Assembly: GCA_963675375.2 (NCBI GenBank)
Contig: OY776212.2
Span: 1,651,404 to 1,715,403, forward strand
Length of the DNA: 64,000 bases
Source of the DNA: Anaerolineales bacterium
Lineage (GTDB): Bacteria; Chloroflexota; Anaerolineae; Anaerolineales; UBA11579
Direction: 5' to 3'
Below, one piece after another: positions 19,676 through 54,538 of this stretch; the first letter of the stretch is position 1; the number at the start of each line of letters is the position of its first letter. The notes beneath the pieces were generated by a model. The model was not told where the DNA came from and did not search any database. It saw only the letters and a list, made by a program, of their open reading frames with translations. Both the position numbers and the translations under genes were made by a program.

Positions 19676-22372
19676 ATGAATAAATCTCCAGACATTATTA
19701 TTCCGACCAAACTCAGTCAGCCGCCTGTCAGGCAAAATTTGGTAGCCCGCCAGGAGATTTTTAAGCGGTTGTCAGAGGGAATTTCACGAAAACTGACCCT
19801 GGTTTCTGCCCCCGCGGGGTTTGGAAAAACTTCTTTAGTGAATGCCTGGCTGCAAATGCAGCTTGCGCCAGTTTCCTGGCTGTCGCTTGATAAACGCGAT
19901 AATGACCTCTCTCGCTTCCTGACATATCTGGAAACATCAATCAGTTCCTCCGTACCTCTGCGGTTCAGCAGCATATTAGAAAGTGAAGGCGGGTCGGACC
20001 AATTTGCCTCCGATTCTATGCTGAAAAATATTCTGGAAAAGCTGTCAAACCAATCCGATTTCAGAATCATTGTTCTAGATGATTATCACTTGATCACTTT
20101 GCCTGCTATTCACGAGGCAATGATCTTCCTGCTGAGCAATTTACCGCAGCCCGAAATGGATGGGAAAGTGCCTGTGCGCGGGTGTCATTTTATGATCATG
20201 ACCCGGTCAGACCCGCCGTTCCCGCTGGCGCGCTGGCGGGTGAGTGGAGAAGTGAATGAGGTTCGCACGGATGATTTACGCTTCTCCTTGGAAGAATCGG
20301 CGGAATTATTGAACCATAACCTCTCACTCGACCTTACCCTGGAAGATATTGCCGAGTTGAAATCTCGCGCCGAGGGGTGGGTGGCAGGGCTGCATCTGGC
20401 CGCGGTCTCCATGCAGGGGCAAGATGCCAAGTTTTGTCATCAATTTATCAACCAACTCAAAGGCAGTTATCGTTTACTGTCCGATTATCTGATCGAAGAA
20501 GTATTCTTACAGCAGCCGAAAAAGGTGCAGGATTTTTTGCTCAAATCCAGTATTCTGGAACGGATGAACGGCGAGCTGTGTGACGCAGTCTTAATGGATC
20601 ATGGCAGCAAAGTGATTTTAGAGTCATTAGACCGGCACAATGTTTTTGTAGTTCCGTTGGACCACGAGCGCCAGTGGTACCGGTATCATCATTTCTTCGC
20701 CGATGTACTCTCGGAGCGTTTTAAGGCATCGGAACAGGAAGATTTTGCCCTGCTGCATGCCCGTGCAGCTCAATGGCTGCAAGATCATGGGTTTATCGAA
20801 GGTAGTGTACATCATTGGTTGTTGGCAGGTGAAGAAGATCGTGCCGATAAGTTGGTGGTAGATGTTTCTACTAAACTACTGGATACCGGGAAATTTTACG
20901 AACTGCGTACCCTCGTGGAGCTTTTCCCGGAAGAAAGCTTTAAGGATCGTCCCTGGCTGTGTGTGCTGCGTGCTTGGGTTTGTTATTTCTACCAACCAGA
21001 TGAGATGGAAATGTGGTTGGTACAAGCAGAACGGATCATTGCCGAAAAGGAAGAAGATACCCAGGAAGTAAGAGAAATTCTCGGGCATGTAGCTGCACTG
21101 CGCTCGATTATACGGATCAACATGGGAAGATTAGAGGAAGCCCTGGGGATTGCTGCGGAAGGGATTGCGATCCTTCCAAAGAAAAACTTTAGTATCAGCG
21201 GCTTGCTGCTGAATGCCATGGGAATTATCTGGATGTTGAAGGGGGATTTCAAGAAATCCCTCGATTATTATATGCAGGCAAAAACCACCCTGCTGCAGGG
21301 CGGTAACTACACAGCGGCGGCCAGAGCTTTAGATCTGGCAGGCAACATTGAAGTGGAGCGGGGAAGTCTGCACCACGCGCTGAGCATCTATAAAGAAGGA
21401 TATTCCTTGTCGGGGGTGGGCAAGGTGATGTATGAGTGGAACCAGTTGGATGAAGCCTTGGAAGCCTTTGAAAGAGCGTATGATTACAGCAAACGAGACG
21501 GCATCGCGGTAGAGATTTCACGATGTGTCCCCCTGGCTCGCGCTTTGGTGGAACTGGGGAAAATGGAGAAAGCTAAAAAGTTCTTTGACCGCTATGCCGA
21601 GTATATCGGCTATTCCAGCCTGACCCCGTGGCTCGATTCGGAATTGGTCGCTTTCCAGATTGAATATTTATCTGCATTAGGTGATTTCCGGGCGGTCGAT
21701 TATCTGGCTTCTAACCGGGGAATTGTGCTGGATAAAGATTTTGAACCGGCCTTAGAGGCAGAATATACCGCTTATGCCTTCTCTTTCCTCAGGCGCGGTG
21801 ATCTTGATGAGGTGATGCGGACAGCGCCGGTGTTGGAACAACGCATGGCACAATGGGGGCTGACCGGCAGGCAGATCAACCTGCTGGCCATCCAGGCTGC
21901 TGCCTACCAACTGGCAGGCGAAACAGACACTGCCCAGACATTGATCGCCAAAGCACTTACGTTGGGCGCTGAAGAGGGGCATATCCGTACCTTTGTTGCC
22001 CTAGGAGAACCGGTCTTAGAAGTGATTGCCGGACTTTCCCAAAATGAATTTGAGCTAGATCGCGCTTATGTGCGCGAAGTGATTGCCGCCTTCCTGAACA
22101 GTCCCAGTGGGGGGACGCTCAGCAGTCCGGTCCACCATGAATATATGGGCGACCAACCGGATCAGCAAGGGGTGCTGATTGAGCCGCTGACTTCTCGCGA
22201 ATTAGAAGTGCTGCATTTGGTGGCGGCCGAACAAAATAACCAGGAAATTGCCGGTAAGTTAAATATTTCGATCAATACGGTCAAGACACATGTTTCGAAT
22301 ATCTTTACCAAGCTGGGGGTCAGCAACCGCCTACAGGCGGCTAACCGCGCACGTCAGTTAGATATTATCTAG
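19676..22372 (+). CDS. LAL-type regulator A (MalT-like ATPase + helical repeats + LuxR HTH)
   Basis: 898 aa. Walker A LVSAPAGFGKTSL, a long helical/TPR-like middle region, and a C-terminal LTSRELEVLHLVAAEQNNQEIAGKLNISINTVKTHVSNIFTKLGV. Confidence 0.85.
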   Translation: MNKSPDIIIPTKLSQPPVRQNLVARQEIFKRLSEGISRKLTLVSAPAGFGKTSLVNAWLQMQLAPVSWLSLDKRDNDLSRFLTYLETSISSSVPLRFSSILESEGGSDQFASDSMLKNILEKLSNQSDFRIIVLDDYHLITLPAIHEAMIFLLSNLPQPEMDGKVPVRGCHFMIMTRSDPPFPLARWRVSGEVNEVRTDDLRFSLEESAELLNHNLSLDLTLEDIAELKSRAEGWVAGLHLAAVSMQGQDAKFCHQFINQLKGSYRLLSDYLIEEVFLQQPKKVQDFLLKSSILERMNGELCDAVLMDHGSKVILESLDRHNVFVVPLDHERQWYRYHHFFADVLSERFKASEQEDFALLHARAAQWLQDHGFIEGSVHHWLLAGEEDRADKLVVDVSTKLLDTGKFYELRTLVELFPEESFKDRPWLCVLRAWVCYFYQPDEMEMWLVQAERIIAEKEEDTQEVREILGHVAALRSIIRINMGRLEEALGIAAEGIAILPKKNFSISGLLLNAMGIIWMLKGDFKKSLDYYMQAKTTLLQGGNYTAAARALDLAGNIEVERGSLHHALSIYKEGYSLSGVGKVMYEWNQLDEALEAFERAYDYSKRDGIAVEISRCVPLARALVELGKMEKAKKFFDRYAEYIGYSSLTPWLDSELVAFQIEYLSALGDFRAVDYLASNRGIVLDKDFEPALEAEYTAYAFSFLRRGDLDEVMRTAPVLEQRMAQWGLTGRQINLLAIQAAAYQLAGETDTAQTLIAKALTLGAEEGHIRTFVALGEPVLEVIAGLSQNEFELDRAYVREVIAAFLNSPSGGTLSSPVHHEYMGDQPDQQGVLIEPLTSRELEVLHLVAAEQNNQEIAGKLNISINTVKTHVSNIFTKLGVSNRLQAANRARQLDII

Positions 22373-22389
22373 TTCCTTGTAACTTTCTG

Positions 22390-22458
22390 AAATCATACCG
22401 GGGGGTGATGACATCTCACCCGAACTTTGTATAATGGCAATGTGTAAATTTTCACAAT
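22390..22458 (+). promoter_or_regulatory. conserved upstream element of cytochrome cassette A
   Basis: The 29-nt block aaatcataccggggggtgatgacatctca (22390-22418) is identical to 31189-31217. A second shared block, attttcacaat (22448-22458), matches 31249-31259. Confidence 0.55.
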
Positions 22459-22483
22459 AATTGTCTAATATGTAAAGGAAGAG

Positions 22484-23299
22484 ATGAAGAATAAACTACA
22501 TTCCCCCCACAAACTGCTGCTGTTGATGAGCCTGATCGCAGTATTGCTCGTTAGCGGTTGTTCATCTAATTCAGCAGTTCCATCTACTTACCAGCCTGAT
22601 CCCGCCGATGTAGACCTGGAAGGGTGGGCAGAAGCCTATCCCCAAATCTATGCGGACTGGGAATCTTCCATTCACGGTACTGCCTACTTGAGTGGAGATG
22701 AGAACGCCCCAACCTGTAACGACTGCCACGATGCCCCGGTTGAGGGTGAGGTGGTCAATACGGCCGAGTTTCATCTGCAAGTCCCCAACCGCTGTGCCCG
22801 CTGCCACAACGACGACGCACTGATGGCCGATTATGGGATTGCCGATGATGTGTACGAAACCTACCTAGCAGACTTCCACGGGACGACGATCCAGTATTAC
22901 GCGGAAAACGACCCGACTGCGCTGCGCGACGAAGCAGTGTGCAGTGACTGCCACGACAGCCACGCCGTTTACCCGCAGGACGATGAACGTTCCAGCGTAG
23001 CGGCGGTCAATTTACAAACTACCTGTGCCAAGTGCCATGCCGGTGCCAGCGAAGCTTTCACCAGTGCATACGGACACTACCGCCCGATCCAGGACCCGGT
23101 ATCAAAAGCCGATACCACCATCGTTTTCATTGTCAAACTGGCTTACCAGGCCCTGATCCCGATCACCCTGGGCGGTATGTTGGCCTACATCGGCCTGGAT
23201 ATCTTCTTCCGCATCAAGAAGAAAAACACCGCAGCCCCAGCGGAAGAAACCACGGAAACCCCCGAACCTGAGACAAACGAAAGTGAGGCGTCATCATGA
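22484..23299 (+). CDS. tetraheme c-type cytochrome lipoprotein with C-terminal membrane helix (module A)
   Basis: Lipobox LLVSGC, four CxxCH motifs (CNDCH, CARCH, CSDCH, CAKCH), and a hydrophobic C-terminal segment. The stop overlaps the next start (ATGA). Confidence 0.85.
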
Positions 23300-24500
23300 G
23301 CAGCGTTACGACAACTTCCCCCATTCAACAAGAAGAAACCCTCATTCGTTTCGACCTCAGCCAGCGCATTCAGCACATTGTGATGATGGTTTCTTTCATC
23401 ACCCTGGCGCTGACCGGCTTGCCGCAATCCTTTTCAGACGCCGGCTGGGCTAAAGCCTGGATGTCGCTGTTCGGGGGTATCGCCGGGGTGCGCAAGGTGC
23501 ACCATCTGGCAGCTGTATTGATGGTCTTTGTGTTCGTCTACCACTTCATTGTGGTGATCGGCGACCTATTCAAGAAAGACACCGGACGCTGGATGCTGCC
23601 GGTCAAGCAAGACCTGACCGATGCTTCCCATGCAGTCAAGTACCTGCTGGGCAAGGTAGACAGCCCCCCGCAGTACGGGCGTTTTGACTTCCGCCAGAAG
23701 CTGGAATACTGGGCCTTGATCTGGGGGACGATCCTGATGGGGATCACCGGGTTGGTGCTCATGTTCCCGGTGGCGTTTGCCAACTTTTTGCCGGGCGAGG
23801 TGATCTATGCCGCCAAAGCGGCGCATGGGTTAGAAGCTTTGCTTGCAGTGGCATCCATTGTCAGTTGGCACATGTACAATGCGCACTTTGCGCACGGTAT
23901 CTTCCCGATGGATAAGAGCATCTTCACCGGCAAGATCAGCGTGGAGCGCATGAAGGAAGAACACCCCTTGGAATACGAAGCCTTGATGTCTGCCCGAGCG
24001 GCGGAAGCACAGGCTGTTGAAGCAAGCGAACAGAGCGAAGTGGCAGAAACCACTTCGGATGAGAAATAGGGATTAGCCATGTCAAACAAACTAAAACTAA
24101 TCATCGCCATTGTGTTGGTGATCGTGATGATCCCGACCATGGGCAGTGTGTATGTCAAAGATAACCTGCACAGCAGCAACTACTGCGCCGGCTGCCACGA
24201 AGATCACTACACCACCTGGGCAGCACCGGAGAGTGAATACTCCCTGGCGCACCAGCATGCCGAAATGGGTGTCTCTTGCCAGAGCTGCCACCAGCGCACA
24301 ATGGGCGAGTCGGTCATGGAAGTGGTCAACTATGCGACGGGTAATTACTATTACCCCTTCCCGGAGATCGAATTGGGGATGGATACCTGCTTTGCCTGCC
24401 ACGGCAGCTATGCGGAGATCATCCCGCTGACCGATCCGTTGATCACGGGGGAAGAGCGCAACCCGCACGATGGACACTGGGGTGAGCTGGAATGCGGCAC
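22589..24500 (+). repeat. near-identical copy A of the three-gene cytochrome cassette
   Basis: Collinear with 31394-33239. By manual comparison, 22589-23218 differs from 31394-32023 at 7 positions in 630 nt. Only the gene termini and linkers diverge. Confidence 0.85.
23296..24069 (+). CDS. membrane b-type cytochrome, FdnI/PhsC/Ni-hydrogenase cytochrome b-like (module A)
   Basis: About four TM helices with candidate heme-ligand His residues ([29 protein letters not shown]). Confidence 0.75.
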
Positions 24501-24594
24501 ATGCCACAATGCGCACCGAGATTCTGTGGATTACTGCGCGGACTGCCACAACCCGGTCACCGATATGCCCGGATGGGTAAGCGGCACAAAGTAG
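24079..24594 (+). CDS. membrane-anchored small pentaheme c-type cytochrome (module A)
   Basis: An N-terminal TM helix LKLIIAIVLVIVMIPT and five CxxCH motifs (CAGCH, CQSCH, CFACH, CGTCH, CADCH) in 171 aa. Confidence 0.85.
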   Translation: MSNKLKLIIAIVLVIVMIPTMGSVYVKDNLHSSNYCAGCHEDHYTTWAAPESEYSLAHQHAEMGVSCQSCHQRTMGESVMEVVNYATGNYYYPFPEIELGMDTCFACHGSYAEIIPLTDPLITGEERNPHDGHWGELECGTCHNAHRDSVDYCADCHNPVTDMPGWVSGTK

Positions 24595-24713
24595 TATCTG
24601 AGGGGCGGTTCCCGATTGGAACCTGAAAATAGTTAGGAAATTAGAGATTAGGAAAGAATTAATATCTCTTGATACAAATTTTATAAAAATAAAGTAACGA
24701 AGGAGATTTAACA

Positions 24714-26333
24714 ATGAAGCAAGAAGAGTTCGACAAGAAAAATTTGTCCCGCCGAGAGTTTCTCAAGGGCGCAGGGGTAAGTGTAGCCGCATTGGCAGGT
24801 AGCAGTGTGCTGACCGGCTGCAAACCGAAAGCTGCCCCTGCAGAAGGCGAAGCAACCGATACCCCCGCGGCCGGTGGAACGTACTCATTCGAGACACCCC
24901 CGGAACCGATTGCGGACAAAGATATTACCGAAACCGTGACCGCCGACGTAGTTGTGGTTGGTGCCGGTGATGCCGGCCTGGCTGCCACTTTGGCTGCGGC
25001 CGAAGCGGGTGCAAGCGTTATTTTGCTCGAAAAGAGCGCGTCTTTCAACTCGCGCGGTTTTGGCAATGGTGCGCTGGATACCAAGTACCACAAAGAACAA
25101 GGCATTGAACTGGACAAAGGCGCCATCGTCAATGACCTGGTAGAGTTTGCCGGTGCAAAAGTGGACCAGGCAAAGATCGAGTTGTGGGCCGACCACAGCG
25201 GTGAAGTGTACGACCACCTGATCGATCTGGCAACCGAAGCTGAATTACCGATCATGCTGTTCCCCGCCGGACAAGACCCAGAAGCCCGCTACTTTGAATA
25301 TCCCACCTGTTTGGTCTTTGGTTCCACCATGCAGCAGGCCGACCTGCTGTCTGTGGTAGAAGCCGAAGCGATCAAGCAAGGCGCTGACATTCGCTACGAA
25401 ATGACTGCTCAGCAGTTGGTGCAGGAAGATGACGGCACGGTGAGCGGTGTGATCGTTACCAATGCTGCTGGTGAATATGTCAAGTTCGTGGGAGAGAAGG
25501 GCGTTATCCTGGCAACCGGTGACTATGGTCATAACGAAGAAATGATGGATAAGTGGTGTTCCTGGGCAAAGAACGTAGACATGAATGTGTACGTGCCCGC
25601 AGTGAACACCGGCGACGGCCACAAGATGGGTTTGTGGGCCGGCGGCCAGATGGAAATTGGCCCGCATGCACCCATGATCCACACCTTGGGCGGCGGTACC
25701 TTCTCCATGAACCCGGTGCTGCGCGTGAACGGCAAGGGCTTGCGCTACGAGAACGAAGACATCCCGAACCCCTATATCTGCAACAGCCGTCTGCGCCAAC
25801 CGGGCAACGTTGCTTACGCAATTTTTGACTCCAACTACGCAGAATATATCCCGAACACCATCCCCGGCTTTGCCCGCACCACGGCCGTCTCCGAAATGAC
25901 CGCCGAAACGCTGGCATCTGAAGTGGAAAGCGGCGCAGTGCTGAAAGCCGATACCCTGGAAGATTTGGCCGAGCAGATGGGTGTACCGGCAGACAACTTT
26001 GTTGCCACCGTAGAACGCTACACCGAGTTGGCCTTGGCCGGCGAGGACGAAGATTTCCATAAGAATCCCCGCATGATGGCTGCCATCAACCAGGCACCGT
26101 TCTATGCCTCCAAGGTATTCGCCGTACTGCTGGTCACCCTGGGCGGTTTCCGCACCAACACAGACCTGCAAGTTTTGGACGACAACTTTGATGTGATCCC
26201 CGGCCTGTACGCTGCTGGGAATGTCTCCGGCGGTTTCTACGCCAACGACTACCCGGTTTTGGCTGCCGGTCTGAGCCACGGCCGCTGCATCACCGAAGGG
26301 TACCTGGCAGGAAAGCACGCTGCCAACGCATAA
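24714..26333 (+). CDS. Tat-exported lipoprotein FAD-dependent oxidoreductase A1 (fumarate reductase/urocanate reductase/KstD flavoprotein class)
   Basis: Twin-arginine motif SRREFLKGAG, lipobox LTGC, dinucleotide fold DVVVVGAGDAGLAATLAAAEAGASVILLEK, and C-terminal GLYAAGNVSGG. Confidence 0.85.
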   Translation: MKQEEFDKKNLSRREFLKGAGVSVAALAGSSVLTGCKPKAAPAEGEATDTPAAGGTYSFETPPEPIADKDITETVTADVVVVGAGDAGLAATLAAAEAGASVILLEKSASFNSRGFGNGALDTKYHKEQGIELDKGAIVNDLVEFAGAKVDQAKIELWADHSGEVYDHLIDLATEAELPIMLFPAGQDPEARYFEYPTCLVFGSTMQQADLLSVVEAEAIKQGADIRYEMTAQQLVQEDDGTVSGVIVTNAAGEYVKFVGEKGVILATGDYGHNEEMMDKWCSWAKNVDMNVYVPAVNTGDGHKMGLWAGGQMEIGPHAPMIHTLGGGTFSMNPVLRVNGKGLRYENEDIPNPYICNSRLRQPGNVAYAIFDSNYAEYIPNTIPGFARTTAVSEMTAETLASEVESGAVLKADTLEDLAEQMGVPADNFVATVERYTELALAGEDEDFHKNPRMMAAINQAPFYASKVFAVLLVTLGGFRTNTDLQVLDDNFDVIPGLYAAGNVSGGFYANDYPVLAAGLSHGRCITEGYLAGKHAANA

Positions 26334-26605
26334 ATAAAACATACTGAAAGTGCTGCGAGCACTAACATTAACACTTTGACACAAGACAGTGCCCGGTACA
26401 TTGAGAAAAGAACGTGCCGGGCACTGTCGACAAAGCAGATGAGGGAAAAGGTAAGAGAGAGAAAATCTCCTGGAGAATGAAGAGGAATTATGACAATGGG
26501 GAAGGCCTGTTAACTATGGGTTGCTAAATGCTGTGTCAGGTTTAGCCTGGTATGATGCCAGGCTAAATTAAACGTTCAATCTTTTTACACAAGGAGAAAA
26601 AAAGA

Positions 26606-28213
26606 ATGAGTACAGAAGATAAGCACAAGAAAGACCTGTCCCGTCGAGAGTTTTTGAAGGGTGCAGGGCTCGGTGTGGCAGCGATCGCGGGAGGAAGCGT
26701 ACTCTCCGGCTGCAAACCGAAAGCAGCATCAGAGGGGGAAGCCGAGGAACAAGCATCAACTGGATTTTCATTTGAAACGCCGCCAGAGCCAATTGCAGAA
26801 AAAGAGATTACCGACACCGTTACCGCAGATGTAGTTGTGATTGGAGCCGGGGTTGCCGGCGTAATGGCGGCCATGTCAGCCGCGCAAGCCGGTGCCAGCA
26901 CCGTACTGCTCGAAAAATCTGAAACCTACAATGCCCGCGGCGGCCACAACGCTGCTTTGGGCAGCAAGCTGCAAAAAGCCAATGGGATTGATTACGACCC
27001 GAACGAAGTGATCAACGCCCTTGTTCGCTGGTCTGGACACAAAGTAGACCAACGCTTGCTGATGTTGTGGGCCAACAATGTGAATGAAACCATTGACCTG
27101 ATGATTGACATGGCTGAAGCAGAAGGCATGGAAGTGATCCTGTGGGGTAATGATGTGCCCGATGCCGCTTACCCGGAATACAAGACTGTGCACATGTTCG
27201 GCGGTATGGACGAGAAAAATGTGACCATGCTGTGTGAAAAAGCGTTCCTGGAGGCCGGCGGGGAAGTGTACTACTCAACCCCTGCTGCACAGCTGGAACG
27301 GGAAGACGGCGGCCGTGTCACCGGCGTGATCGCCGGCGAACCTGGCGCTTACACGCGCTTTGTTGCCAACAAGGGTGTGATCTTATGCACCGGCGACTAC
27401 GGCAATGACCCCGAGTTGGTTGCCCGTTACTGCCCCAAAGCTGCTGATGTAGACATGAATGTGTACGCACCGCAGGTTAACACCGGCGATGGGCACAAGA
27501 TGGGTATGTGGATTGGCGCCGCCATGCAAGAAGAAGACCCGGCCGCGACTGTGATGCATAACTTGGGTGCCTTGAGCCTGACTTCCAACCCCTTCTTGCG
27601 GGTGAACGGGGTGGGCGAACGCTACGAAAACGAAGATGTACCGCTTACCTACATGGTCAACAAGATCCAACTGCTGCCCGACAACACCGCCTATACTGTC
27701 TTCGACAGCACCTACGGCGACGAACTGGCCAACTTTACGCCCAGCTTTGCGCGTGTGACCGCCATGAGCGACAGTGTGCAGGAAGAACTGGATGCAGCTG
27801 TTGAAGCCGGCACGACCGTCTTCAAAGCCGATACAATCGAAGAATTGGCCGAAAAACTCAACGTCCCCGCCGCCAACCTTAAAGCCACTGTTGACCGCTA
27901 CAATGAACTGGCTGCCAATGGTGAGGATGTCGACTTCGGTAAAGACCCCAGCATCCTGACCCCGATTGATACTGCCCCGTTCTACGGCGCACGCATCACG
28001 GTTGCCCTCCTGGTGGTTTTGGGTGGTTTGAACACCAACACCAACCTGGAAGTGCTGGATACAGAAGGGAATGTGATCCCCGGTCTGTATGCTGCCGGCA
28101 ACACAGTGGGCAACTTCTTTGCCAACGATTATCCGGTCATCGTCCCCGGCCTGAGCCACAGCCGCGCTTTGGTATTCGGCCGCCTGGCCGGTCAGACCGC
28201 TGCAAACGCCTAA
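26606..28213 (+). CDS. Tat-exported lipoprotein FAD-dependent oxidoreductase A2 (paralog)
   Basis: SRREFLKGAG, lipobox LSGC, DVVVIGAGVAGVMAAMSAAQAGASTVLLEK and GLYAAGN. Clearly paralogous to A1 over its full length. Confidence 0.85.
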   Translation: MSTEDKHKKDLSRREFLKGAGLGVAAIAGGSVLSGCKPKAASEGEAEEQASTGFSFETPPEPIAEKEITDTVTADVVVIGAGVAGVMAAMSAAQAGASTVLLEKSETYNARGGHNAALGSKLQKANGIDYDPNEVINALVRWSGHKVDQRLLMLWANNVNETIDLMIDMAEAEGMEVILWGNDVPDAAYPEYKTVHMFGGMDEKNVTMLCEKAFLEAGGEVYYSTPAAQLEREDGGRVTGVIAGEPGAYTRFVANKGVILCTGDYGNDPELVARYCPKAADVDMNVYAPQVNTGDGHKMGMWIGAAMQEEDPAATVMHNLGALSLTSNPFLRVNGVGERYENEDVPLTYMVNKIQLLPDNTAYTVFDSTYGDELANFTPSFARVTAMSDSVQEELDAAVEAGTTVFKADTIEELAEKLNVPAANLKATVDRYNELAANGEDVDFGKDPSILTPIDTAPFYGARITVALLVVLGGLNTNTNLEVLDTEGNVIPGLYAAGNTVGNFFANDYPVIVPGLSHSRALVFGRLAGQTAANA

Positions 28214-28251
28214 ACTCCTGTTTTCTTCTTTCCAGGATAGGTAACTAAACC

Positions 28252-28289
28252 TTTGCCCCTCGCAGATATGTTGATGTGCGGGGGGCAAA
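28252..28289 (+). terminator. 13-bp stem hairpin after flavoenzyme A2 (no T-run)
   Basis: tttgcccctcgca ... tgcggggggcaaa. No U-tract follows, so terminator function is uncertain. Confidence 0.35.
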
Positions 28290-28392
28290 AACCTTAACTT
28301 TGTGGTTTATAGTACAATTGGTTTGATCGACCAATTAGGAAAGGGTTTTGATCGAAAGTATGGGATAGTCTGCGGCTCACAACATAGAAAAA

Positions 28393-31161
28393 ATGCTGAA
28401 CAGATTTCCGGATATGATTATTCCCACCAAGTTGAATCAGCCGCTTGTCAGGGCGGACTTGGTGACGCGCACCAATTTGGATGAACGCTTGCGCGAAGGG
28501 CTGACAAAAAAACTGACCCTTGTATCTGCCCCGGCCGGATTTGGTAAGACAACCCTGATCTCGGCCTGGCTGAACCATTTACCTTATCAGGCTTCCTGGT
28601 TATCGTTAGATCAACGGGATAACAATTTTTCTCGTTTCCTGGCTTACTTGGAGATTTCGTTAAATCCTTTCCGGTCAAACAAAGAATGTTTGTACGAAAA
28701 CTTCACGTCTGCCGACCACCAATATACCGAACAGTTTCTTGAGAAAGCCCTGCAGAAGATGGCAAACCAACGGCCTTTCCGCCTGTTGGTGCTGGACGAT
28801 TACCATTTAATCACCAATCAAAAGGTACACAATACCCTCGTCTTCCTGCTCAACAATCTTCCCTTGCCCGATCCTTCTTTCAAGGGCGGAGGGAAAGGGT
28901 GTCATGTGGTGTTGCTCACTCGCTCAGATCCGCCTTTCCCGGTGGCGCGCTGGCGGGTGCATCATCAGGTCAACGAGATTAGAACGGATGACCTGCGCTT
29001 TTCTTTGGAAGAAACTGCCCAACTTTTCAATCATTCGATGCAGTTAGGGCTTTCTTTAGAAGATGTCGCCGAATTGAAATCGCGTGCCGAGGGGTGGGTG
29101 GCCGGTTTGCAGCTGGCCGGGGTTTCCCTGCAGGGTCAAAAACCGCGCAACCACCATCATTTCATCAGCCAGATCAAGGGGAGTTACCGCCTGCTGGCCG
29201 ACTTTTTGATCGAAGAAGTCTACTTACAGCAAACGCCGGAGATCCAAGATTTCCTCCTGAAGACCAGTATTTTAGATCGGATGAACGGCGAGTTGTGCGA
29301 TGCATTGCTGCAAAGTTTTGGCGGGAACAAAATCCTGACTTTTTTAGAGCGCAACAATGTCTTTGTAGTCCCATTAGACCACGACCGTCATTGGTACCGC
29401 TATCATCACTTTTTTGCCGAGGTGCTTGCCGACCGCCTGAAAGCGATCCAGGATGAAGAGTATAAACAACTCCATATCCGAGCGGCGCAGTGGCTGGAAG
29501 AACATGAATTTATAGAAGATAGTGTGCGCCACTGGCTGCAAGCCAAAGACTACCAACATGCCTCTAGCCTGATCGTCAGGACGGCCTCTAAATTGTTGGA
29601 TCAGGGTAAGTTTTATATTCTGCGCAGCCTGGTGGAATTGTTCCCCGAAGAATCCTTCCAGCGGTCTCCCTGGTTGAGCATTTACCGCTCCTGGACTTGT
29701 TTTATGCTGGAACCTGCTGAAATGGAGACCTGGTTGATGTCCTCTGAACGGGTGATTGACAGCATGATCGAGGAAGGCGAGACGGATACGGATGAGATCA
29801 ATGAAATGCTGGGCAATATTGCCGCTATCCGCGCTCTGGCAGCCGTGCGGCAGGGAGATTTGGAAAAGACCCTGTCGTTAGCGCCTTATGCCCTGGCACT
29901 TCTGCCTGAAAAAGCGATCAAAGTGCGCGGCCTGGTGTTCAACGCCATCGGCACCAGCTGTATGTTGAAAGGCGAGCAGGAGAAAGCGCTGGAGCATTTC
30001 ATGGAAGCCAAAACCATCCTGCGCAAGGGCGGTAATTTTGGCGGGTCGGCAGATGCGCTCAGTTTTGCCGGAGAAATTCAGCTGGACCGGGGAGAGCTGC
30101 GTCTTGCTTTAGACACCTTCAAAGAAGCCATTTCGTTGGAGAAGTACCATTCCGGCGGGGAACCTTGTTATGTCAGCCAGGCGTATAGTGGGGTGGGGCA
30201 AATTTTGTTTGAGTGGAATCAACTGGATGAGGCATTTTGGAACTTCCAAAACGGCTATCAATACAGCGGGCGGATGGGGGTTTCTAACCAGATTTCTTGT
30301 GCCATCCCGATGGTGGCAGCCTGGTTGGAGTTGGGCCAATTGGATAAAGCCGAAGAAGTCTTGAGCCAGTACAGCGGGTATATTGGGCATACTTCGCTCA
30401 CCCCGTGGGTAGACTCGCGGCTGGTTGCCACCCAAATCCATTTTCTGGCTGCTCAAGCAGATTTTCGCGAGATCGACCATTTGATCCGCTACCGGGGAAT
30501 CGATTTAGGGGAACATTTTACCCTGACGCGGGAACCGGAATACACCGCGGTAGCGCTGTCTTACTTGATGCGCGGCAATATGAAACAGGCGGTCAACCTC
30601 TCGACGCGCCTGGAGGGACGCGTGGGGGCATTGGGCAGCACAGGCCGTCAAATCCGGCTGTTGGCGATCTTGGCGGCTTCTCTCAGTTTGCTCGGCCAGC
30701 AAAAGGCCGCACTGAAAAAGGTTGCCAGAGCTTTCAAACTGGCAGGCAGCGAAGGGTTTATCCGCAGCTTTGTGGCTATGGGGGAACCGATGCTGTCTCT
30801 GATTGCCGAATTAGCCGATTCGGAATTTGTGGAAACTTACCGGCTCGACAAGGCTTACCTGGGCGAGGTGGTGTCTGCTTTCATCGCTGGCGAAGATGGC
30901 AGTGCCTTTTACAACCCGCTGCGTACCGAACCAGCCCGCGCGATGGGGAATATGCCGGGACTAATTATGGAGCCATTGACCGAACGCGAGTTGGAAGTTT
31001 TGCAGCTGCTTGCCGCCGAGAAAAACAACCGAGAAATTGCCAGCCGGTTGAGCATTTCGATCAATACGGTCAAGACGCATATCGCCAATATTTACAGCAA
31101 GCTGGGGGTCAGCAACCGGTTACAGGCCGCTAACCGGGTTCGGCAGCTTAAAATTTTCTAA
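28393..31161 (+). CDS. LAL-type regulator B (paralog of regulator A)
   Basis: 922 aa. Walker A LVSAPAGFGKTTL and a C-terminal LuxR HTH (LTERELEVLQLLAAEKNNREIASRLSISINTVKTHIANIYSKLGV). Collinear with regulator A but heavily substituted. Confidence 0.85.
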   Translation: MLNRFPDMIIPTKLNQPLVRADLVTRTNLDERLREGLTKKLTLVSAPAGFGKTTLISAWLNHLPYQASWLSLDQRDNNFSRFLAYLEISLNPFRSNKECLYENFTSADHQYTEQFLEKALQKMANQRPFRLLVLDDYHLITNQKVHNTLVFLLNNLPLPDPSFKGGGKGCHVVLLTRSDPPFPVARWRVHHQVNEIRTDDLRFSLEETAQLFNHSMQLGLSLEDVAELKSRAEGWVAGLQLAGVSLQGQKPRNHHHFISQIKGSYRLLADFLIEEVYLQQTPEIQDFLLKTSILDRMNGELCDALLQSFGGNKILTFLERNNVFVVPLDHDRHWYRYHHFFAEVLADRLKAIQDEEYKQLHIRAAQWLEEHEFIEDSVRHWLQAKDYQHASSLIVRTASKLLDQGKFYILRSLVELFPEESFQRSPWLSIYRSWTCFMLEPAEMETWLMSSERVIDSMIEEGETDTDEINEMLGNIAAIRALAAVRQGDLEKTLSLAPYALALLPEKAIKVRGLVFNAIGTSCMLKGEQEKALEHFMEAKTILRKGGNFGGSADALSFAGEIQLDRGELRLALDTFKEAISLEKYHSGGEPCYVSQAYSGVGQILFEWNQLDEAFWNFQNGYQYSGRMGVSNQISCAIPMVAAWLELGQLDKAEEVLSQYSGYIGHTSLTPWVDSRLVATQIHFLAAQADFREIDHLIRYRGIDLGEHFTLTREPEYTAVALSYLMRGNMKQAVNLSTRLEGRVGALGSTGRQIRLLAILAASLSLLGQQKAALKKVARAFKLAGSEGFIRSFVAMGEPMLSLIAELADSEFVETYRLDKAYLGEVVSAFIAGEDGSAFYNPLRTEPARAMGNMPGLIMEPLTERELEVLQLLAAEKNNREIASRLSISINTVKTHIANIYSKLGVSNRLQAANRVRQLKIF

Positions 31162-31188
31162 AATAAGTCCTCTATCAGACCATTGAAT

Positions 31189-31259
31189 CAAATCATACCG
31201 GGGGGTGATGACATCTCATCCTGCTTATCCGTATGCTAAGAATGTGGATATTTTCACAA
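31189..31259 (+). promoter_or_regulatory. conserved upstream element of cytochrome cassette B
   Basis: The same 29-nt block and the same attttcacaat block as in 22390-22458. Confidence 0.55.
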
Positions 31260-31285
31260 TCTGAATACATTTAACCAAGGAAAAT

Positions 31286-32083
31286 ATGAGAAGAAAAAGA
31301 CAAAAATATTCGATAGGCCCGGTACGTACGCTCTGTATCTGGGTCTTGCTGCTCGCCAGCGGATGTTCTAGTGTTGGCGATCTGGCGGTTGCATACCAGC
31401 CTGATCCCGCCGATGTAGACCTGGAAGGGTGGGCAGAAGCCTATCCCCAAATCTATGCGGACTGGGAATCTTCCATTCACGGTACTGCCTACCTGAGTGG
31501 AGATGAGAACGCCCCGACCTGTAATGACTGCCACGATGCCCCGGTTGAGGGTGAGGTGGTCAATACGGCCGAGTTTCATCTGCAAGTCCCCAACCGCTGT
31601 GCCCGCTGCCACAACGACGACGCACTGATGGCCGAGTATGGGATTGCTGATGATGTGTACGAAACCTACCTGGCAGACTTCCACGGGACGACGATCCAGT
31701 ATTACGCGGAAAACGACCCGACTGCGCTGCGCGACGAAGCAGTGTGCAGTGACTGCCACGACAGCCACGCCGTTTACCCGCAGGACGATGAACGTTCCAG
31801 CGTAGCGGCGGTCAATTTACAAACTACCTGTGCCAAGTGCCATGCCGGTGCCAGCGAAGCTTTCACCAGTGCATACGGACACTACCGCCCGATCCAGGAC
31901 CCGGTATCAAAAGCCGATACCACCATCGTTTTCATTGTCAAACTGGCTTACCAGGCCCTGATCCCGATCACCCTGGGCGGTATGTTGGCCTACATCGGCC
32001 TGGACATCTTCTTCCGCATCAAGCGCAAGAACGCCAAGCAAAACACCGAACCCGAAACTGACGAAAGCGAGGCGCAGTCATGA
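31286..32083 (+). CDS. tetraheme c-type cytochrome lipoprotein (module B)
   Basis: Lipobox LLASGC and four CxxCH. The conserved core (YQPD...FFRIK) differs from copy A at one residue (D to E); the signal peptide and C-terminal tail differ. Confidence 0.85.
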
Positions 32084-33239
32084 CCCATTCAACTTCCACA
32101 CCAATGCCGCAGGAAGAAACCATGATCCGTTTCGACCTCAGCCAGCGCATTCAGCACATTGTGATGATGGTTTCCTTCATCACCCTGGCGCTGACCGGCT
32201 TGCCGCAATCCTTTTCAGACGCCGGCTGGGCCAAAGCCTGGATGTCGCTGTTCGGGGGTATCGCCGGGGTGCGCAAGGTGCACCATCTGGCAGCTGTATT
32301 GATGATCTTCGTGTTCGTCTACCACTTCATTGTGGTGATCGGTGACCTGTTCAAGAAAGACACCGGACGCTGGATGCTGCCGGTCAAGCAAGACCTGACC
32401 GATGCTTCCCATGCGGTCAAATACCTGCTGGGCAAAGTGGACAGCCCCCCGCAGTACGGGCGTTTTGACTTCCGCCAGAAGCTGGAATATTGGGCCTTGA
32501 TCTGGGGGACGATCCTGATGGGGATCACCGGGTTGGTGTTGATGTTCCCGGTGGCGTTTGCCAACTTTTTGCCGGGCGAGGTGATCTATGCCGCCAAAGC
32601 AGCGCATGGGTTGGAAGCACTCCTGGCAGTGGCATCCATTGTCAGCTGGCACATGTACAATGCGCACTTTGCGCACGGTATCTTCCCGATGGATAAGAGC
32701 ATCTTCACCGGCAAGATCAGCGTAGAGCGCATGAAGGAAGAACATCCTTTGGAATACGAAGCCTTGATGGCGGCACAGACGACAGCCCGCACCGAAACAG
32801 AAGAATAGGAGCCAGCCATGTCAAACAAACTAAAACTAATCATCGCCATTGTGTTGGTGATCGTGATGATCCCGACCATGGGCAGTGTGTATGTCAAAGA
32901 CAGCTTGCACAGCACCAATTACTGTGCCGGCTGCCACGAAGATCACTACACCACCTGGGCAGCACCGGAGAGTGAATACTCCCTGGCGCACCAGCATGCC
33001 GAAATGGGTGTCTCTTGCCAGAGCTGCCACCAGCGCACAATGGGTGAGTCGGTCATGGAAGTGGTCAACTATACCACCGGTAATTACTATTACCCCTTCC
33101 CGGAGATCGAATTGGGGATGGATACCTGTTTTGCCTGCCACGGCAGCTATGCGGAGATCATCCCGCTGACCGATCCGTTGATCACGGGGGAAGAGCGCAA
33201 TCCGCACGATGGACACTGGGGTGAGCTGGAATGCGGCAC
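31394..33239 (+). repeat. near-identical copy B of the three-gene cytochrome cassette
   Basis: Partner of 22589-24500. Confidence 0.85.
32080..32808 (+). CDS. membrane b-type cytochrome (module B)
   Basis: Nearly identical to 23296-24069 except at the extreme N- and C-termini. ATGA overlap with the upstream gene. Confidence 0.75.
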
Positions 33240-33333
33240 GTGCCATAAAATGCACCGCGACTCGATTGATTACTGCGCCAGCTGCCATAACTCGGTCACC
33301 GATGCGCCGGGGTGGACGAAGCCAAGCCCATAG
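32818..33333 (+). CDS. membrane-anchored small pentaheme c-type cytochrome (module B)
   Basis: Five CxxCH motifs. Differs from copy A at a few residues, mostly in the last 35 aa. Confidence 0.85.
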   Translation: MSNKLKLIIAIVLVIVMIPTMGSVYVKDSLHSTNYCAGCHEDHYTTWAAPESEYSLAHQHAEMGVSCQSCHQRTMGESVMEVVNYTTGNYYYPFPEIELGMDTCFACHGSYAEIIPLTDPLITGEERNPHDGHWGELECGTCHKMHRDSIDYCASCHNSVTDAPGWTKPSP

Positions 33334-33438
33334 GGTATGACCGCGATTTAAGTAAGCAAGGAAAATGAAGAGTTTTCTGGGAAAGTTTTATTCCCTCAAA
33401 CTCGGAGTGAATAATCAAAAGTTCAAGGAGAAAAAAGA

Positions 33439-35073
33439 ATGAGTACAGAAGAAAAAAACAAGAAAATGCTGTCTCGCCGTGAATTCCTCAAAGGAGCCGG
33501 CATCAGCGTGGCTGCTATCGCTGGCAGCAGTGTGTTGTCCGGCTGCAAGCCAAAAACCGCACCGGCAGAAGATGCCGCTGCGGATGGCGCAGTAGAAAGC
33601 GGCGCAGCATCCTATTCGTTTGAAACCCCGCCAGACCCGATTGCCAAAAAAGACATCAAAGACACCAAATCGGCAGACGTAGTTGTGTTGGGCGCAGGAA
33701 TTTCTGGCCTGTGCGCAGCCTATGCAGCCGCCGAAAAGGGCGCCAGCGTGATCGTTTTGGAGAAGCGTGAAACCTTTACTTTCCACGGGATGGACAACGG
33801 TGTGATCGGCGACCGCCTGCATAAAGCCGAAGGTTTGGATGTGCCCAAAGACCAGGCGATGGCCGATATTATGCGCTTCGGCGGCTACCGCCAGAACCCC
33901 CGCGTGGTGTCCTTGTGGGCCAATGAGAGCGGCCGGGTGATGGATCGCTTGTTGGATATGGCCGATGAGGCTGGCTTTACTTACATCGTGGATAATGATG
34001 TCAAAGAGCATTTCCCCTACAAAGAATTTGCCACTTCCATCCAATTCCAACCGGCTCGCCAGGCTACCCTGGTACCGATGCTGGAAGGCAATGTGCGCGG
34101 CATGGGCGTCGAAATTTTATACGATACCCCCGCACGTCAGCTGCTGCGTGGCGATGATGGTAAGGTGACCGGTGTGGTCGCCGAAACCGAAGACGGCTAC
34201 CTCCAGGTAGATGCCAGCAAGGGCGTGATCATCTGCACCGGCGGGTACGGCAGCAACCAGGAAATGCTGGCGAAGTATGCCCCCCGCGCTACCAAGATCG
34301 TTAACAACCAATACGCTGAACAGAGCAATACCGGCGACGGTATCTTGATGGGGATGTGGGTTGGCGGCGCCAAGCAGGAAAGCTCCTGCCCGATGTTGTG
34401 GGACGGACATATCCCTGGGATTGGCGGCATGCATATGACCCTTGCCCGCCAGCCGTGGCTGTATGTGAATGTTTTGGGCGAACGCTATGCCAACGAAGAT
34501 GCTCCCTTTGGCTACACAGCCAACCAGGACATCATGCAGCCGACCAGCATGAAGTGGGCGGTGTGGGATGCCAAATGGGAAACCGATGTGCACCAGCTGC
34601 ATGGTACGGTTTGTGAAGCAATGCGCCCGCCGTTCTGGACAGAAGATAGTTACCAGGACTATATGGACAGAGGCGTGATTGTGGAAGCCGACACCCTGGA
34701 AGAACTGGCCGAGGTGATGGAAGTGCCGGTAGACGCCTTGATGGCGACGGTTGCCCGCTACAACGAACTCTACGAGATGGGTGAGGATGTAGACTTTGGG
34801 AAAGACCCCGCCAAACTGACCTCGATTGTAGAAGGTCCCTTCGGTGCTGCCAAAGTCGGCGCCGGGATTTTGGTCACAGTCGATGGCCTGCGCATCAACA
34901 CCGATCTGCAAGTGTTGGACACGGAAGGACAACCGATCCCTGGCTTGTACGCCGCCGGGAATGCCTCTGGTGACTTCTTTGCCCAAGACTACCCGATTGA
35001 CCTGCACGGCCTCAGCCACGGGCGTGCCCTCACCTTTGGCTGGTTAGCCGGAGAAAAGGCTGCGGAAGCATAA
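33439..35073 (+). CDS. Tat-exported lipoprotein FAD-dependent oxidoreductase B (divergent paralog)
   Basis: SRREFLKGAG, lipobox LSGC, DVVVLGAGISGLCAAYAAAEKGASVIVLEK and GLYAAGNASGD. More diverged from A1 and A2 than they are from each other. Confidence 0.85.
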   Translation: MSTEEKNKKMLSRREFLKGAGISVAAIAGSSVLSGCKPKTAPAEDAAADGAVESGAASYSFETPPDPIAKKDIKDTKSADVVVLGAGISGLCAAYAAAEKGASVIVLEKRETFTFHGMDNGVIGDRLHKAEGLDVPKDQAMADIMRFGGYRQNPRVVSLWANESGRVMDRLLDMADEAGFTYIVDNDVKEHFPYKEFATSIQFQPARQATLVPMLEGNVRGMGVEILYDTPARQLLRGDDGKVTGVVAETEDGYLQVDASKGVIICTGGYGSNQEMLAKYAPRATKIVNNQYAEQSNTGDGILMGMWVGGAKQESSCPMLWDGHIPGIGGMHMTLARQPWLYVNVLGERYANEDAPFGYTANQDIMQPTSMKWAVWDAKWETDVHQLHGTVCEAMRPPFWTEDSYQDYMDRGVIVEADTLEELAEVMEVPVDALMATVARYNELYEMGEDVDFGKDPAKLTSIVEGPFGAAKVGAGILVTVDGLRINTDLQVLDTEGQPIPGLYAAGNASGDFFAQDYPIDLHGLSHGRALTFGWLAGEKAAEA

Positions 35074-35202: not shown

Positions 35203-36255
35203 ATGACCAAACCGACCGATCTGCTGCTCAAAGATTTTCGCCCCCAACCCAAGCTGGTAGTGCCGCAAACCAGGGTGGAAAAACCGCGTTTTCCCGTATT
35301 CGATGCCCATAACCATTTAGGAGACCTGTTTGGCGGCGGCTGGATCAACCGGCCGGTCAGCCAGCTGCTGGATGTGCTGGATGAGGCCGATGTGCAGTAT
35401 CTGGTAGACCTGGATGGCGGGTGGGGGGAAGATGTGCTCGAAAAGCACTTGGCGGTCTTGAAAGCTGCTGCCCCGGATCGCTTCATCGTTTTCGGTGGGG
35501 TAGACTGGGCGCGCTGGCCGGAGCAGGGGGCGGTCTTTGGCGAATGGGCGGCCAAACGGCTACACGTGCAGGCGCAGCGGGGGGCAGAAGGGTTGAAAAT
35601 TTGGAAGCCGTTTGGGTTATCGATGACCGATGACCAGGGCGTGCTGGCCCGCCTGGATGACGAACGTCTGGCGCCGATCTGGGAGACGGCTGCCGAGCTG
35701 GGTTTGCCGGTAATCATCCATGTGGCCGACCCGGTGGCTTTCTTTGACCCCCTGGATGCCAATAACGAACGCTGGGACGAACTCAATGCCCATCCCGATT
35801 GGCATTTTCCATCTCCGCCGTACCCGCCCTTTATGGAGATCATGAACCAACTTGCCAGCCTGGTGATAAGCCACCCGCAGACGACTTTCATCGGGGCGCA
35901 TGTGGGCTGTTACTCGGAGAACCTGGCCTGGGTCGGCAGTTTGCTGGAGCGGGCGCCGAATTTCTATGTCGATATCAGCGCACGGATTGCGGAGTTGGGG
36001 CGGCAGCCGTACTCCGCCCGCAAATTCTTCCTCAAGTATACCGACCGCATTTTGTTTGGCACCGACCTACCCGCCGATGTGGAGATGTACCGTTTGTATT
36101 ACCGTTTCTTAGAGAGCGAAGATGAATATTTTAACTATTCGTTGGAAGACCTGCCGCCGCAAGGGCGCTGGCAAATCTACGGCCTGCATTTGCCGGAGGA
36201 TGTGCTGCAAAAGGTCTACAATTTGAATGCCAAGAGGATTTTTAAGAAAGATTAA
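35203..36255 (+). CDS. amidohydrolase-family (TIM-barrel metal-dependent hydrolase) protein
   Basis: The N-terminal FDAHNH HxH motif, plus later His and Asp residues (IIHVAD, GAHVG, FGTD) typical of amidohydrolase_2. Confidence 0.7.
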   Translation: MTKPTDLLLKDFRPQPKLVVPQTRVEKPRFPVFDAHNHLGDLFGGGWINRPVSQLLDVLDEADVQYLVDLDGGWGEDVLEKHLAVLKAAAPDRFIVFGGVDWARWPEQGAVFGEWAAKRLHVQAQRGAEGLKIWKPFGLSMTDDQGVLARLDDERLAPIWETAAELGLPVIIHVADPVAFFDPLDANNERWDELNAHPDWHFPSPPYPPFMEIMNQLASLVISHPQTTFIGAHVGCYSENLAWVGSLLERAPNFYVDISARIAELGRQPYSARKFFLKYTDRILFGTDLPADVEMYRLYYRFLESEDEYFNYSLEDLPPQGRWQIYGLHLPEDVLQKVYNLNAKRIFKKD

Positions 36256-37511: not shown

Positions 37512-37530
37512 TTCTTGGTTGGAGGAAGAG

Positions 37531-39225: not shown

Positions 39226-39226
39226 G

Positions 39227-39871: not shown

Positions 39872-39913
39872 GCAGGACACAGACGACAAAGACCGGTAAT
39901 AGAGGAGATGGAT

Positions 39914-51209: not shown

Positions 51210-51212
51210 TTT

Positions 51213-52736: not shown

Positions 52737-52740
52737 TTGT

Positions 52741-54498: not shown

Positions 54499-54515
54499 TA
54501 ATCAATCATTGATTA
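54499..54515. promoter_or_regulatory. AT-rich perfect palindrome (Fur-family-box-like) 24 nt upstream of the LRR protein start
   Basis: taatcaat-c-attgatta, embedded in gataatatttattcattaatcaatcattgattatcatt. Confidence 0.35.
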
Positions 54516-54538
54516 TCATTGTTTGTCTGGAGGGGAAG

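Follow-up and report, generated by a model that had tools for sequence, protein, structure and literature searches.

The 64,000-nucleotide (nt) stretch of the Anaerolineales contig OY776212.2 analysed here (the window) contains, at 19676-35073, two tandem modules in which a gene for an LAL regulator is followed by genes for a tetrahaem cytochrome c (c4), a cytochrome b (cytb), a pentahaem cytochrome c (c5) and flavoenzymes that bind flavin adenine dinucleotide (FAD), namely A1 and A2 in module A and a single enzyme, B, in module B. Each module is probably an inducible operon, and the reductase it encodes would take electrons from menaquinol and act on an unsaturated organic acceptor other than fumarate at the outer surface of the cytoplasmic membrane. 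The modules are real, coherent, conserved and uncharacterised, and they are built from recognisable parts, those of Fcc3, ArdAB, Mrd/Mcc and Cgr1/Cgr2 together with a Cbc-type quinol oxidase. The duplicated gene order had been proposed in a sequence-only reading of the window, and its coordinates and all of its features were reproduced by an open reading frame map and a motif script (Table 1); a domain scan with Pfam and NCBIfam assigned families to the LAL, cytb, c5 and flavoenzyme proteins.

Comparison with Shewanella Fcc3 accounts for both c5 and the flavoenzymes. Residues 57-164 of c5, which hold haems 2-5, match the tetrahaem domain of Fcc3 (1d4c, residues 7-96; E=8.5e-6), the domain assigned to c5 being Cytochrom_c3_2, and the flavoenzyme aligns with residues 125-566 of the Fcc3 flavin domain. 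Given these two matches, c5 and the flavoenzyme are, at the level of sequence, demonstrably a split flavocytochrome c3 with an extra membrane anchor and one more haem, the haem domain that is fused in Fcc3 being placed here on a separate protein. The three flavoenzymes score 144-160 bits with Pfam FAD_binding_2; A2 is 53% identical to A1, and B is 47-49% identical to A1 and A2. An AlphaFold2 model of A1 (pLDDT 90.3) is disordered at residues 1-53, as expected for a signal peptide and tether, and structural comparison of this model using Foldseek placed it nearest to UrdA, Fcc3, KstD, delta-4-(5-alpha) ketosteroid dehydrogenase and cyclohexanone dehydrogenase, with the flavin and clamp fold of Fcc3 matched at E=9e-36 (1qjd) and a similar fold for UrdA (6t86, TMt 0.86). 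These nearest solved structures all act on a C-C bond alpha,beta to a carbonyl or carboxyl group. A search of the PDB with a C-terminal fragment of A1 listed only Fcc3 mutants, and the FMN_bind domain through which electrons enter UrdA is absent from the Pfam results for the flavoenzymes. Named families fit less closely: the match to flavo_cyto_c (TIGR01813) is 168.7-177.5 bits against a cutoff of 285.45, and the best NCBIfam match, the vinyl phenol reductase VprA (NF053717), reaches 189-239 bits yet is far under its cutoff of 600.

The active site was compared in a MAFFT alignment in which the Fcc3 fragment was set against 123 sequences, those of the three window enzymes and of 120 homologues. 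At Fcc3 H365 the window enzymes and the family have a gap, and they keep neither E378 nor R381 of the proton path. The position of R402 is Asn, Leu or Phe in the three window enzymes and is variable across the family, H504 is replaced by Leu in 116/123 sequences and R545 by Tyr in 122/123. Since all of the Fcc3 fumarate residues are lost, A1, A2 and B are not fumarate reductases. This agrees with the earlier view that the substrate is not obviously fumarate, which had been drawn from the stretch IHTLGGGTFSMNPVLRVNGKG that is indeed present in A1. It also bears on the possibility, raised at the same time, that the system is an ordinary split flavocytochrome c3: the split arrangement is found, but the complete fumarate site is not, none of its residues being kept. 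A D-Y-P motif in the enzymes may resemble the T-Y-P motif of KstD. No Cys is invariant or near-invariant in 57 aligned members of the subfamily, which argues against an iron-sulphur (Fe-S) cluster in the flavoenzymes of the [4Fe-4S] kind present in Cgr2.

The signals in these proteins predict that the flavoenzymes and both c-type cytochromes face outwards, as had been proposed. A1, A2 and B each have the sequence SRREFLK at residue 12, in agreement with the twin-arginine translocation (Tat) motif S/T-R-R-x-F-L-K, followed by the lipobox L[TS]GC at residue 33, and none has a CxxCH motif; the domain scan gave a sub-threshold TAT_signal match in addition to FAD_binding_2. The twin-arginine motif and lipobox Cys claimed for each FAD enzyme are therefore present in all three, and export and lipidation can be predicted. 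Among the 120 homologues the twin-arginine motif occurs in 112, and in 85 of the 120 it is followed as well by a lipobox-like Cys. The c5 protein has five CxxCH motifs and an N-terminal transmembrane (TM) helix, at residues 8-26 in c5-A. The c4 protein has four CxxCH motifs, a lipobox (VSGC in module A, ASGC in module B) and a C-terminal hydrophobic helix followed by RIKKK, which would place the tail of c4 in the cytoplasm.

The cytochrome b, a Ni_hydr_CYTB (FdnI-like) protein in Pfam, is of the dihaem type. A family profile built from 25 sequences matched FdnI, the gamma subunit of Escherichia coli formate dehydrogenase-N (1kqf_C), from end to end (E=1.3e-18), and the FdnI haem ligands H18, H57, H155 and H169 correspond to cytb H27, H69, H177 and H192, located in TM1, TM2 and TM4 and invariant in 25/25 sequences. 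The FdnI-like assignment made from the sequence alone is thus borne out for the fold and for all four haem-b ligands. Nevertheless, cytb differs from FdnI in that its partner is a c-type cytochrome and that it probably works in the quinol-oxidising direction. Its score with the FdnI model TIGR01583 is 75.6 bits, under the cutoff of 115.85, and its neighbours encode cytochromes c, with no FdnG or FdnH genes. The best matches to cytb, at 70% identity, come from Anaerolineae metagenome-assembled genomes (MAGs).

For c4, comparison with solved structures gave no meaningful sequence relative, the top matches being spurious Rpb9 zinc ribbons. Residues ~50-250 of c4 do align with the last ~200 residues of 9-11-haem cytochromes that adjoin cytb homologues in other phyla, a region that includes the last four of their haem motifs together with their C-terminal helix. 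It therefore appears, from these alignments, that c4 is a truncated derivative corresponding to the C-terminal four-haem and TM part of CbcL-like 7-15-haem cytochromes. In the Geobacter Cbc type (CbcL, CbcBA), a dihaem b protein is combined with a periplasmic multihaem cytochrome c that is C-terminally anchored or fused (bioRxiv 10.1101/2021.04.15.440034). The pair c4 and cytb has this combination of a dihaem b domain with a multihaem c domain, the likeness to CbcL (GSU0274) being one of the architecture described in that study (bioRxiv 10.1101/2021.04.15.440034). The wider cytb family likewise pairs with 7-15-haem cytochromes that are in some cases fused. The differences are that c4 has only four haems and that the output would be to a flavoenzyme and not to extracellular metals. 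The long-cytochrome pairs form a large family of their own (L010-L081; for example L027 8955-10675 and L079 8069-10669), found in Chloroflexota, Acidobacteriota, Myxococcota and other phyla, with fusions such as an 866-amino-acid protein in L079 and often a gene for a ~217-amino-acid LuxR-type protein 2-4 kb downstream; they look like CbcL-type quinol oxidases.

The three cytochrome genes are closely coupled. The overlap of the c4 stop and cytb start codons (ATGA) noted earlier in both modules is present, at 23296-23299 in A and 32080-32083 in B, and c4/cytb overlaps in three further loci (L002, L082 and L084) point to translational coupling; the gap between cytb and c5 is 9 nt. Between the two modules, the cytochromes are 90% (c4), 93% (cytb) and 92% (c5) identical as proteins, whereas the LAL proteins are 55% identical. 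At the level of DNA, the cytochrome cassettes (22484-24594 and 31286-33333) are 90.6% identical, reaching 99% over one 300-nt stretch, and the LAL genes only 61%. Orthologous genes of the closest relative share ~91-94% DNA identity with the window; the B cassettes of the two genomes are 86.9% identical (L001 9189-11299 and 17999-20046 compared). Given that identity of the cassettes within the window exceeds that between orthologues, and that the flanking genes are divergent, gene conversion between the cassettes is indicated. With this signature the cytochrome cassette behaves as an interchangeable part, and it can be regarded as a putative generic wire that is kept near-identical by gene conversion.

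A search of other genomes for the five-gene order, by a neighbourhood script run over the fetched loci and by additional contig look-ups, showed that the unit recurs. Both cytb and c5 occur in 14 other loci, hosted by Anaerolineae/Anaerolineales and by Thermoguttaceae MAGs, and a c4-like gene accompanies them in each, with four CxxCH motifs in 13/14 and three in the remaining locus (L013). A FAD_binding_2 gene lies within 4.5 kb in 12 of these 14 triad loci, and in one other (L003) it lies ~5 kb downstream, after a LAL gene. In contrast, none of the 71 loci in which cytb accompanies a 7-15-haem cytochrome, with no c5, has a flavoenzyme nearby (12/14 versus 0/71; Fisher p=7e-13). The recurrence of the triad with its flavoenzyme in 14 other loci indicates that the arrangement is more than chance. 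Three further cytb paralogues (P0003, P0123 and P0004) and a protein 100% identical to A1 were also found, and the source genome probably holds at least five cassettes. The c5 family itself is modest, with 116 representatives at E<=1e-10 among 1.84 billion.

In the closest relative (L087, ena:ERZ21878137:contig_80), an additional gene at 16837-19113, between c5-B and the orthologue of flavoenzyme B, encodes a 758-amino-acid Fe-S flavoenzyme of the FadH/old yellow enzyme (OYE) type, with Oxidored_FMN and Pyr_redox_2 domains and its own Tat and lipobox signal SRRDFLKGAVIGVTATGLAGC. The enzyme is related to BilR and BaiCD. Replacement of the module B enzyme by one of the OYE type was considered and ruled out, as the extra gene is inserted before the FAD-B orthologue. 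Given this enzyme, the cytochrome wire may serve a second class of ene-reductase.

A route for the electrons can be proposed from what is directly supported: the identities of the domains, the ligands of the haems, the signals for topology, the conserved gene set and the absence of the fumarate site. The FdnI-type dihaem cytb would take electrons from the quinol pool and pass them from its two haems b to the four haems of c4, the C-terminal helix of which would lie beside cytb as the haem domain does in CbcL; FdnH sits beside FdnI in a comparable way. From c4, electrons would move to the membrane-anchored c5, the last four haems of which would be the counterpart of the flavocytochrome c3 cytochrome domain, and c5 would in turn reduce the FAD of the one or two Tat-exported, lipid-tethered flavoenzymes. 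In the last step these enzymes would reduce an organic acceptor, other than fumarate, at a C=C bond that adjoins a carbonyl or carboxyl group. Specificity would reside in the flavoenzyme and in the cytoplasmic MalT-like regulator, each module being induced through its own sensor. Of the chain put forward in the sequence-only reading, from quinol through b, c4 and c5 to the flavoenzyme, the components stand at the level of sequence, and the order, direction and respiratory role we infer.

Several observations weigh against this scheme. First, the triad locus with the three-motif c4 (L013) has no recognisable flavoenzyme nearby. Second, the regulators of the triad loci vary, comprising LAL proteins, a GAF-GerE protein, a HisKA_3 kinase with a GerE response regulator and TetR, which indicates that LAL control is lineage-specific and does not define the system. 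Third, the regulators are predicted to be cytoplasmic and the enzymes to act outside the cell. Fourth, FdnI natively reduces quinone, so the direction of electron flow is not fixed by homology. Finally, cytb and c4 are absent from a locus of Thermacetogenium phaeum (L088 5794-10326). Two flavoenzymes of the subfamily are encoded there, with 43% identity to A1 in one case, together with ResB/CcsA, a PucR-like regulator and an orthologue-like pentahaem cytochrome, which matches the window c5 from end to end and shares its five haem motifs. The c5 and flavoenzyme pair is, as judged from this locus, a stand-alone unit in Firmicutes, which makes the b/c4 pair an add-on; c5 may oxidise quinol itself, with b and c4 not obligatory upstream.

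This raises the alternative that c5 is the quinol dehydrogenase, in the style of NapC/NirT, CymA or Cgr1, and feeds the flavoenzymes directly, with cytb and c4 as a parallel or auxiliary entry that would serve, for example, a different quinone, a route assisted by the proton motive force or other extracellular acceptors. The Thermacetogenium locus, in which c5, flavoenzymes and ResB/CcsA do without cytb and c4, supports this alternative, and Cgr1 has been proposed to draw directly on the quinone pool (PMC5953540). The c5 protein is homologous to Cgr1 and not orthologous to it, with 59.4 bits against a cutoff of 340 (E=3.7e-16). There is in addition a match to NapC/NirT (PF03264, Cytochrom_NNT) at the N-terminus of c5, but it is weak, covering residues 7-73 only with 17.6 bits against a cutoff of 24.1, and c5 has five CxxCH motifs, so that in score and in number of haems (four in that family) it differs from the NapC/NirT quinol dehydrogenases such as CymA and NrfH. 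The alternative is unlikely for further reasons: every locus with cytb and c5 also has c4 and the genes are translationally coupled, the short four-haem c4 has no other conserved partner, and homogenisation extends over the whole cassette as one unit.

A second alternative reverses the direction, the flavoenzymes being exported dehydrogenases or desaturases, comparable to KstD or cyclohexanone dehydrogenase, that would oxidise a substrate outside the cell; electrons would pass from them through c5 and c4 to cytb and menaquinone, generating a proton motive force by a redox loop as in formate dehydrogenase-N. It accords with the function of FdnI, the closest solved relative of cytb, as a quinone reductase, with the presence of KstD-type and cyclohexanone dehydrogenases among the structural neighbours of A1, and with the near-invariant Tyr in place of R545. 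Against it, the redox potentials of enoate and enone couples are as a rule higher than that of menaquinone, so that oxidation to menaquinone would be uphill; the homologues of c5 and the flavoenzymes with known function (Fcc3, ArdAB, Mrd/Mcc, Cgr1/2 and UrdA) are all reductases; and the extra enzyme of the relative belongs to the FadH/OYE family with its links to BilR and BaiCD. Oxidation is for these reasons distinctly improbable. Least probable is a non-respiratory detoxification or biotransformation, for example of plant phenolics or xenobiotics, with the cytochromes only as electron sink or source and no energy conserved: it fits VprA as the best (if far sub-cutoff) NCBIfam match, the Amidohydro_2 gene conserved downstream, from a family that includes aromatic acid decarboxylases, and the action of Cgr2 on a plant toxin (PMC5953540), but it overlaps mechanistically with the preferred explanation, and the dedicated quinol-linked haem chain and the multiplicity of modules resemble respiratory arsenals (bioRxiv 10.1101/2022.12.26.521950).

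For the preferred reading, that of a quinol-dependent reductase, the position of the quinone site would matter for energy coupling. Were it placed at the cytoplasmic haem, the arrangement in FdnI, oxidation of quinol would, speculatively, consume membrane potential in a reverse loop. A bolder proposal, held tentatively and unlikely to be right, is that the triad forms a distinct three-cytochrome menaquinol:flavoenzyme oxidoreductase complex, so far confined to Anaerolineae and Thermoguttaceae, that would let presumed fermenters respire a range of organic acceptors, with probably at least five cassettes in this genome. In such a complex, cytb would oxidise quinol at the cytoplasmic face in a 'reverse redox loop', assisted by the proton motive force, that sets the working potential of the chain, a feature lacking in the c5-only systems of Firmicutes and Coriobacteriia.

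Turning to control of the modules, the LAL proteins comprise TPR_MalT, GerE and AAA_16 domains, and residues 8-895 of LAL-A align with residues 2-896 of the 903 positions of the NCBIfam MalT model (NF003420) with 424.5 bits against a cutoff of 537. They share with MalT a full-length arrangement of NTPase, winged helix, TPR_MalT and GerE, and differ from it in falling under the equivalog cutoff and in having putative target genes of respiratory type and not for maltose; by this comparison they are MalT-like in architecture and are not MalT orthologues. No hydrophobic or transmembrane segment was seen in their hydropathy profiles. The earlier description of full-length MalT-like STAND regulators therefore stands, but that of LAL control as a defining feature does not, given the other regulators in related loci. 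A 24-nt element, ATACCGGGGGGTGATGACATCTCA, is found without mismatch 5' of each c4 gene of the window (two copies, 0 expected), and in the relative L001 each of the two c4 genes is preceded by its 12-nt core, GGGGGGTGATGA. Of the promoter-like sites in front of c4-A, the best (22408-22435, ATGACA-16-TATAAT, 11/12) has its -35 overlapped by the element, which is a candidate LAL operator; the regulator probably activates the promoter that carries it. No copy of the element precedes the flavoenzyme genes in the window, which makes it probable that A1 and B share a transcript with the cytochromes. The spacer between A1 and A2 (26334-26605, 272 nt) contains two long perfect hairpins (minimum free energy -85 kcal/mol, z=-5.74) without a clear U-tract, which could be terminators, processing sites or stabilisers; an Rfam scan of 16000-37000 detected no regulatory RNA, these hairpins included.

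Parts of the system have precedents in other bacteria. In Geobacter AM-1, the methacrylate system Mrd/Mcc consists of a Tat-exported flavoprotein and a Sec-exported cytochrome (PMC4427408), and Wolinella FccA with its cytochromes is a comparable split flavocytochrome (PMC4427408). In Shewanella woodyi, ArdAB is a split flavocytochrome c for acrylate and has substrate-specific paralogues (bioRxiv 10.1101/2024.02.11.579808). The modules resemble these split or fused flavocytochromes c (ArdAB, Mrd/Mcc, Wolinella FccA and Fcc3) in having an exported FAD_binding_2 reductase fed by an adjacent small multihaem cytochrome c. They differ in that the window enzymes are without the fumarate residues and predicted to be lipid-tethered, that c5 has a predicted membrane anchor and an extra haem, that the operon adds a dedicated cytochrome b and c4, and that the hosts are Chloroflexota and Planctomycetota and not Proteobacteria. 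In Eggerthella lenta, Cgr1/Cgr2 pairs an anchored Cytochrom_c3_2 cytochrome with a Tat-exported FAD_binding_2 enzyme next to a regulator with LuxR/GerE output (PMC5953540); the window regulators are of the cytoplasmic STAND/MalT type and not transmembrane LuxR-type proteins, and the modules have the additional cytb and c4, with no Fe-S cluster expected. Substrate-induced arsenals of flavin reductases, with many paralogous modules per genome, have been described from gut bacteria (bioRxiv 10.1101/2022.12.26.521950), and an expansion of fumarate reductase paralogues in Desulfitobacterium is a long-standing observation (PMC3306737).

Given that each half has close precedents, and that the c5 and flavoenzyme pair occurs alone in Thermacetogenium, the system can be seen as a recombination of known modules, in which a CbcL-like quinol oxidase, reduced in length, has been joined to a split flavocytochrome c. 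No description of an operon of b, c4, c5 and a Tat-lipoprotein flavoenzyme was found in the literature searched, which was of limited coverage and included Chloroflexota and Anaerolineae, and no paper on this gene order was found, in keeping with the earlier remark that the combination was not recognised as a described system. Anaerolineae, which abound in sediments, digesters and wastewater, are usually regarded as fermenters. Were the proposed function correct, they could respire organic acceptors such as unsaturated acids, phenolics and humic fragments by means of multiple inducible, quinol-linked extracellular ene-reductases, and the idea of a reductase arsenal in gut bacteria would also come to cover environmental Chloroflexota and Planctomycetota. 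The modules would also be paired regulator-enzyme units for the discovery of substrates.

Table 1. Features of the two modules and the adjoining gene, in window positions.
Feature	Position	Strand	Description
LAL-A	19676-22372	+	898 amino acids; MalT-like STAND regulator, Walker A GFGKT, TPR_MalT sensor, GerE/LuxR helix-turn-helix
24-nt element, copy 1	22395-22418	+	ATACCGGGGGGTGATGACATCTCA; upstream of c4-A; candidate LAL operator/promoter
c4-A	22484-23299	+	271 amino acids; predicted Sec lipoprotein, 4 CxxCH, C-terminal TM anchor
cytb-A	23296-24069	+	257 amino acids; FdnI-type dihaem cytochrome b
c5-A	24079-24594	+	171 amino acids; N-terminally anchored pentahaem cytochrome c, Cgr1-like
Flavoenzyme A1	24714-26333	+	539 amino acids; FAD_binding_2, Tat signal and lipobox
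Flavoenzyme A2	26606-28213	+	535 amino acids; FAD_binding_2, Tat signal and lipobox
LAL-B	28393-31161	+	922 amino acids; MalT-like STAND regulator
24-nt element, copy 2	31195-31218	+	exact repeat, upstream of c4-B
c4-B	31286-32083	+	counterpart of c4-A
cytb-B	32080-32808	+	counterpart of cytb-A
c5-B	32818-33333	+	counterpart of c5-A
Flavoenzyme B	33439-35073	+	544 amino acids; FAD_binding_2, Tat signal and lipobox
Amidohydro_2 gene	35203-36255	+	Pfam PF04909; directly 3' of flavoenzyme B; possible accessory gene

Upstream of the modules, a third LAL gene was considered and ruled out: the gene at 16722-19475 encodes a histidine kinase (three PAS domains, HisKA_3 and HATPase) and lies in a stretch of low GC content (0.43-0.46 against ~0.53). 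It is directly 5' of LAL-A in the relative also, with no receiver-domain partner nearby. Downstream, the Amidohydro_2 gene begins 130 nt 3' of flavoenzyme B and also follows the FAD-B orthologue in the relative; its product has no NCBIfam match, and the family includes non-oxidative aromatic acid decarboxylases, possibly a hint towards phenolic substrates. The genes that follow at 36504-41410, for a zinc alcohol dehydrogenase, an FGGY kinase, a class II aldolase and an L-arabinose isomerase, apparently serve ordinary pentose catabolism and are unrelated to the modules. Further along, a DDE transposase gene (49013-50089) adjoins a cluster for a sugar-binding protein, a histidine kinase and an AraC-type response regulator (50202-54357), and the 941-amino-acid protein encoded at 54509-57334 has leucine-rich repeats together with a trypsin-like protease domain, a combination that is unusual for a bacterium.

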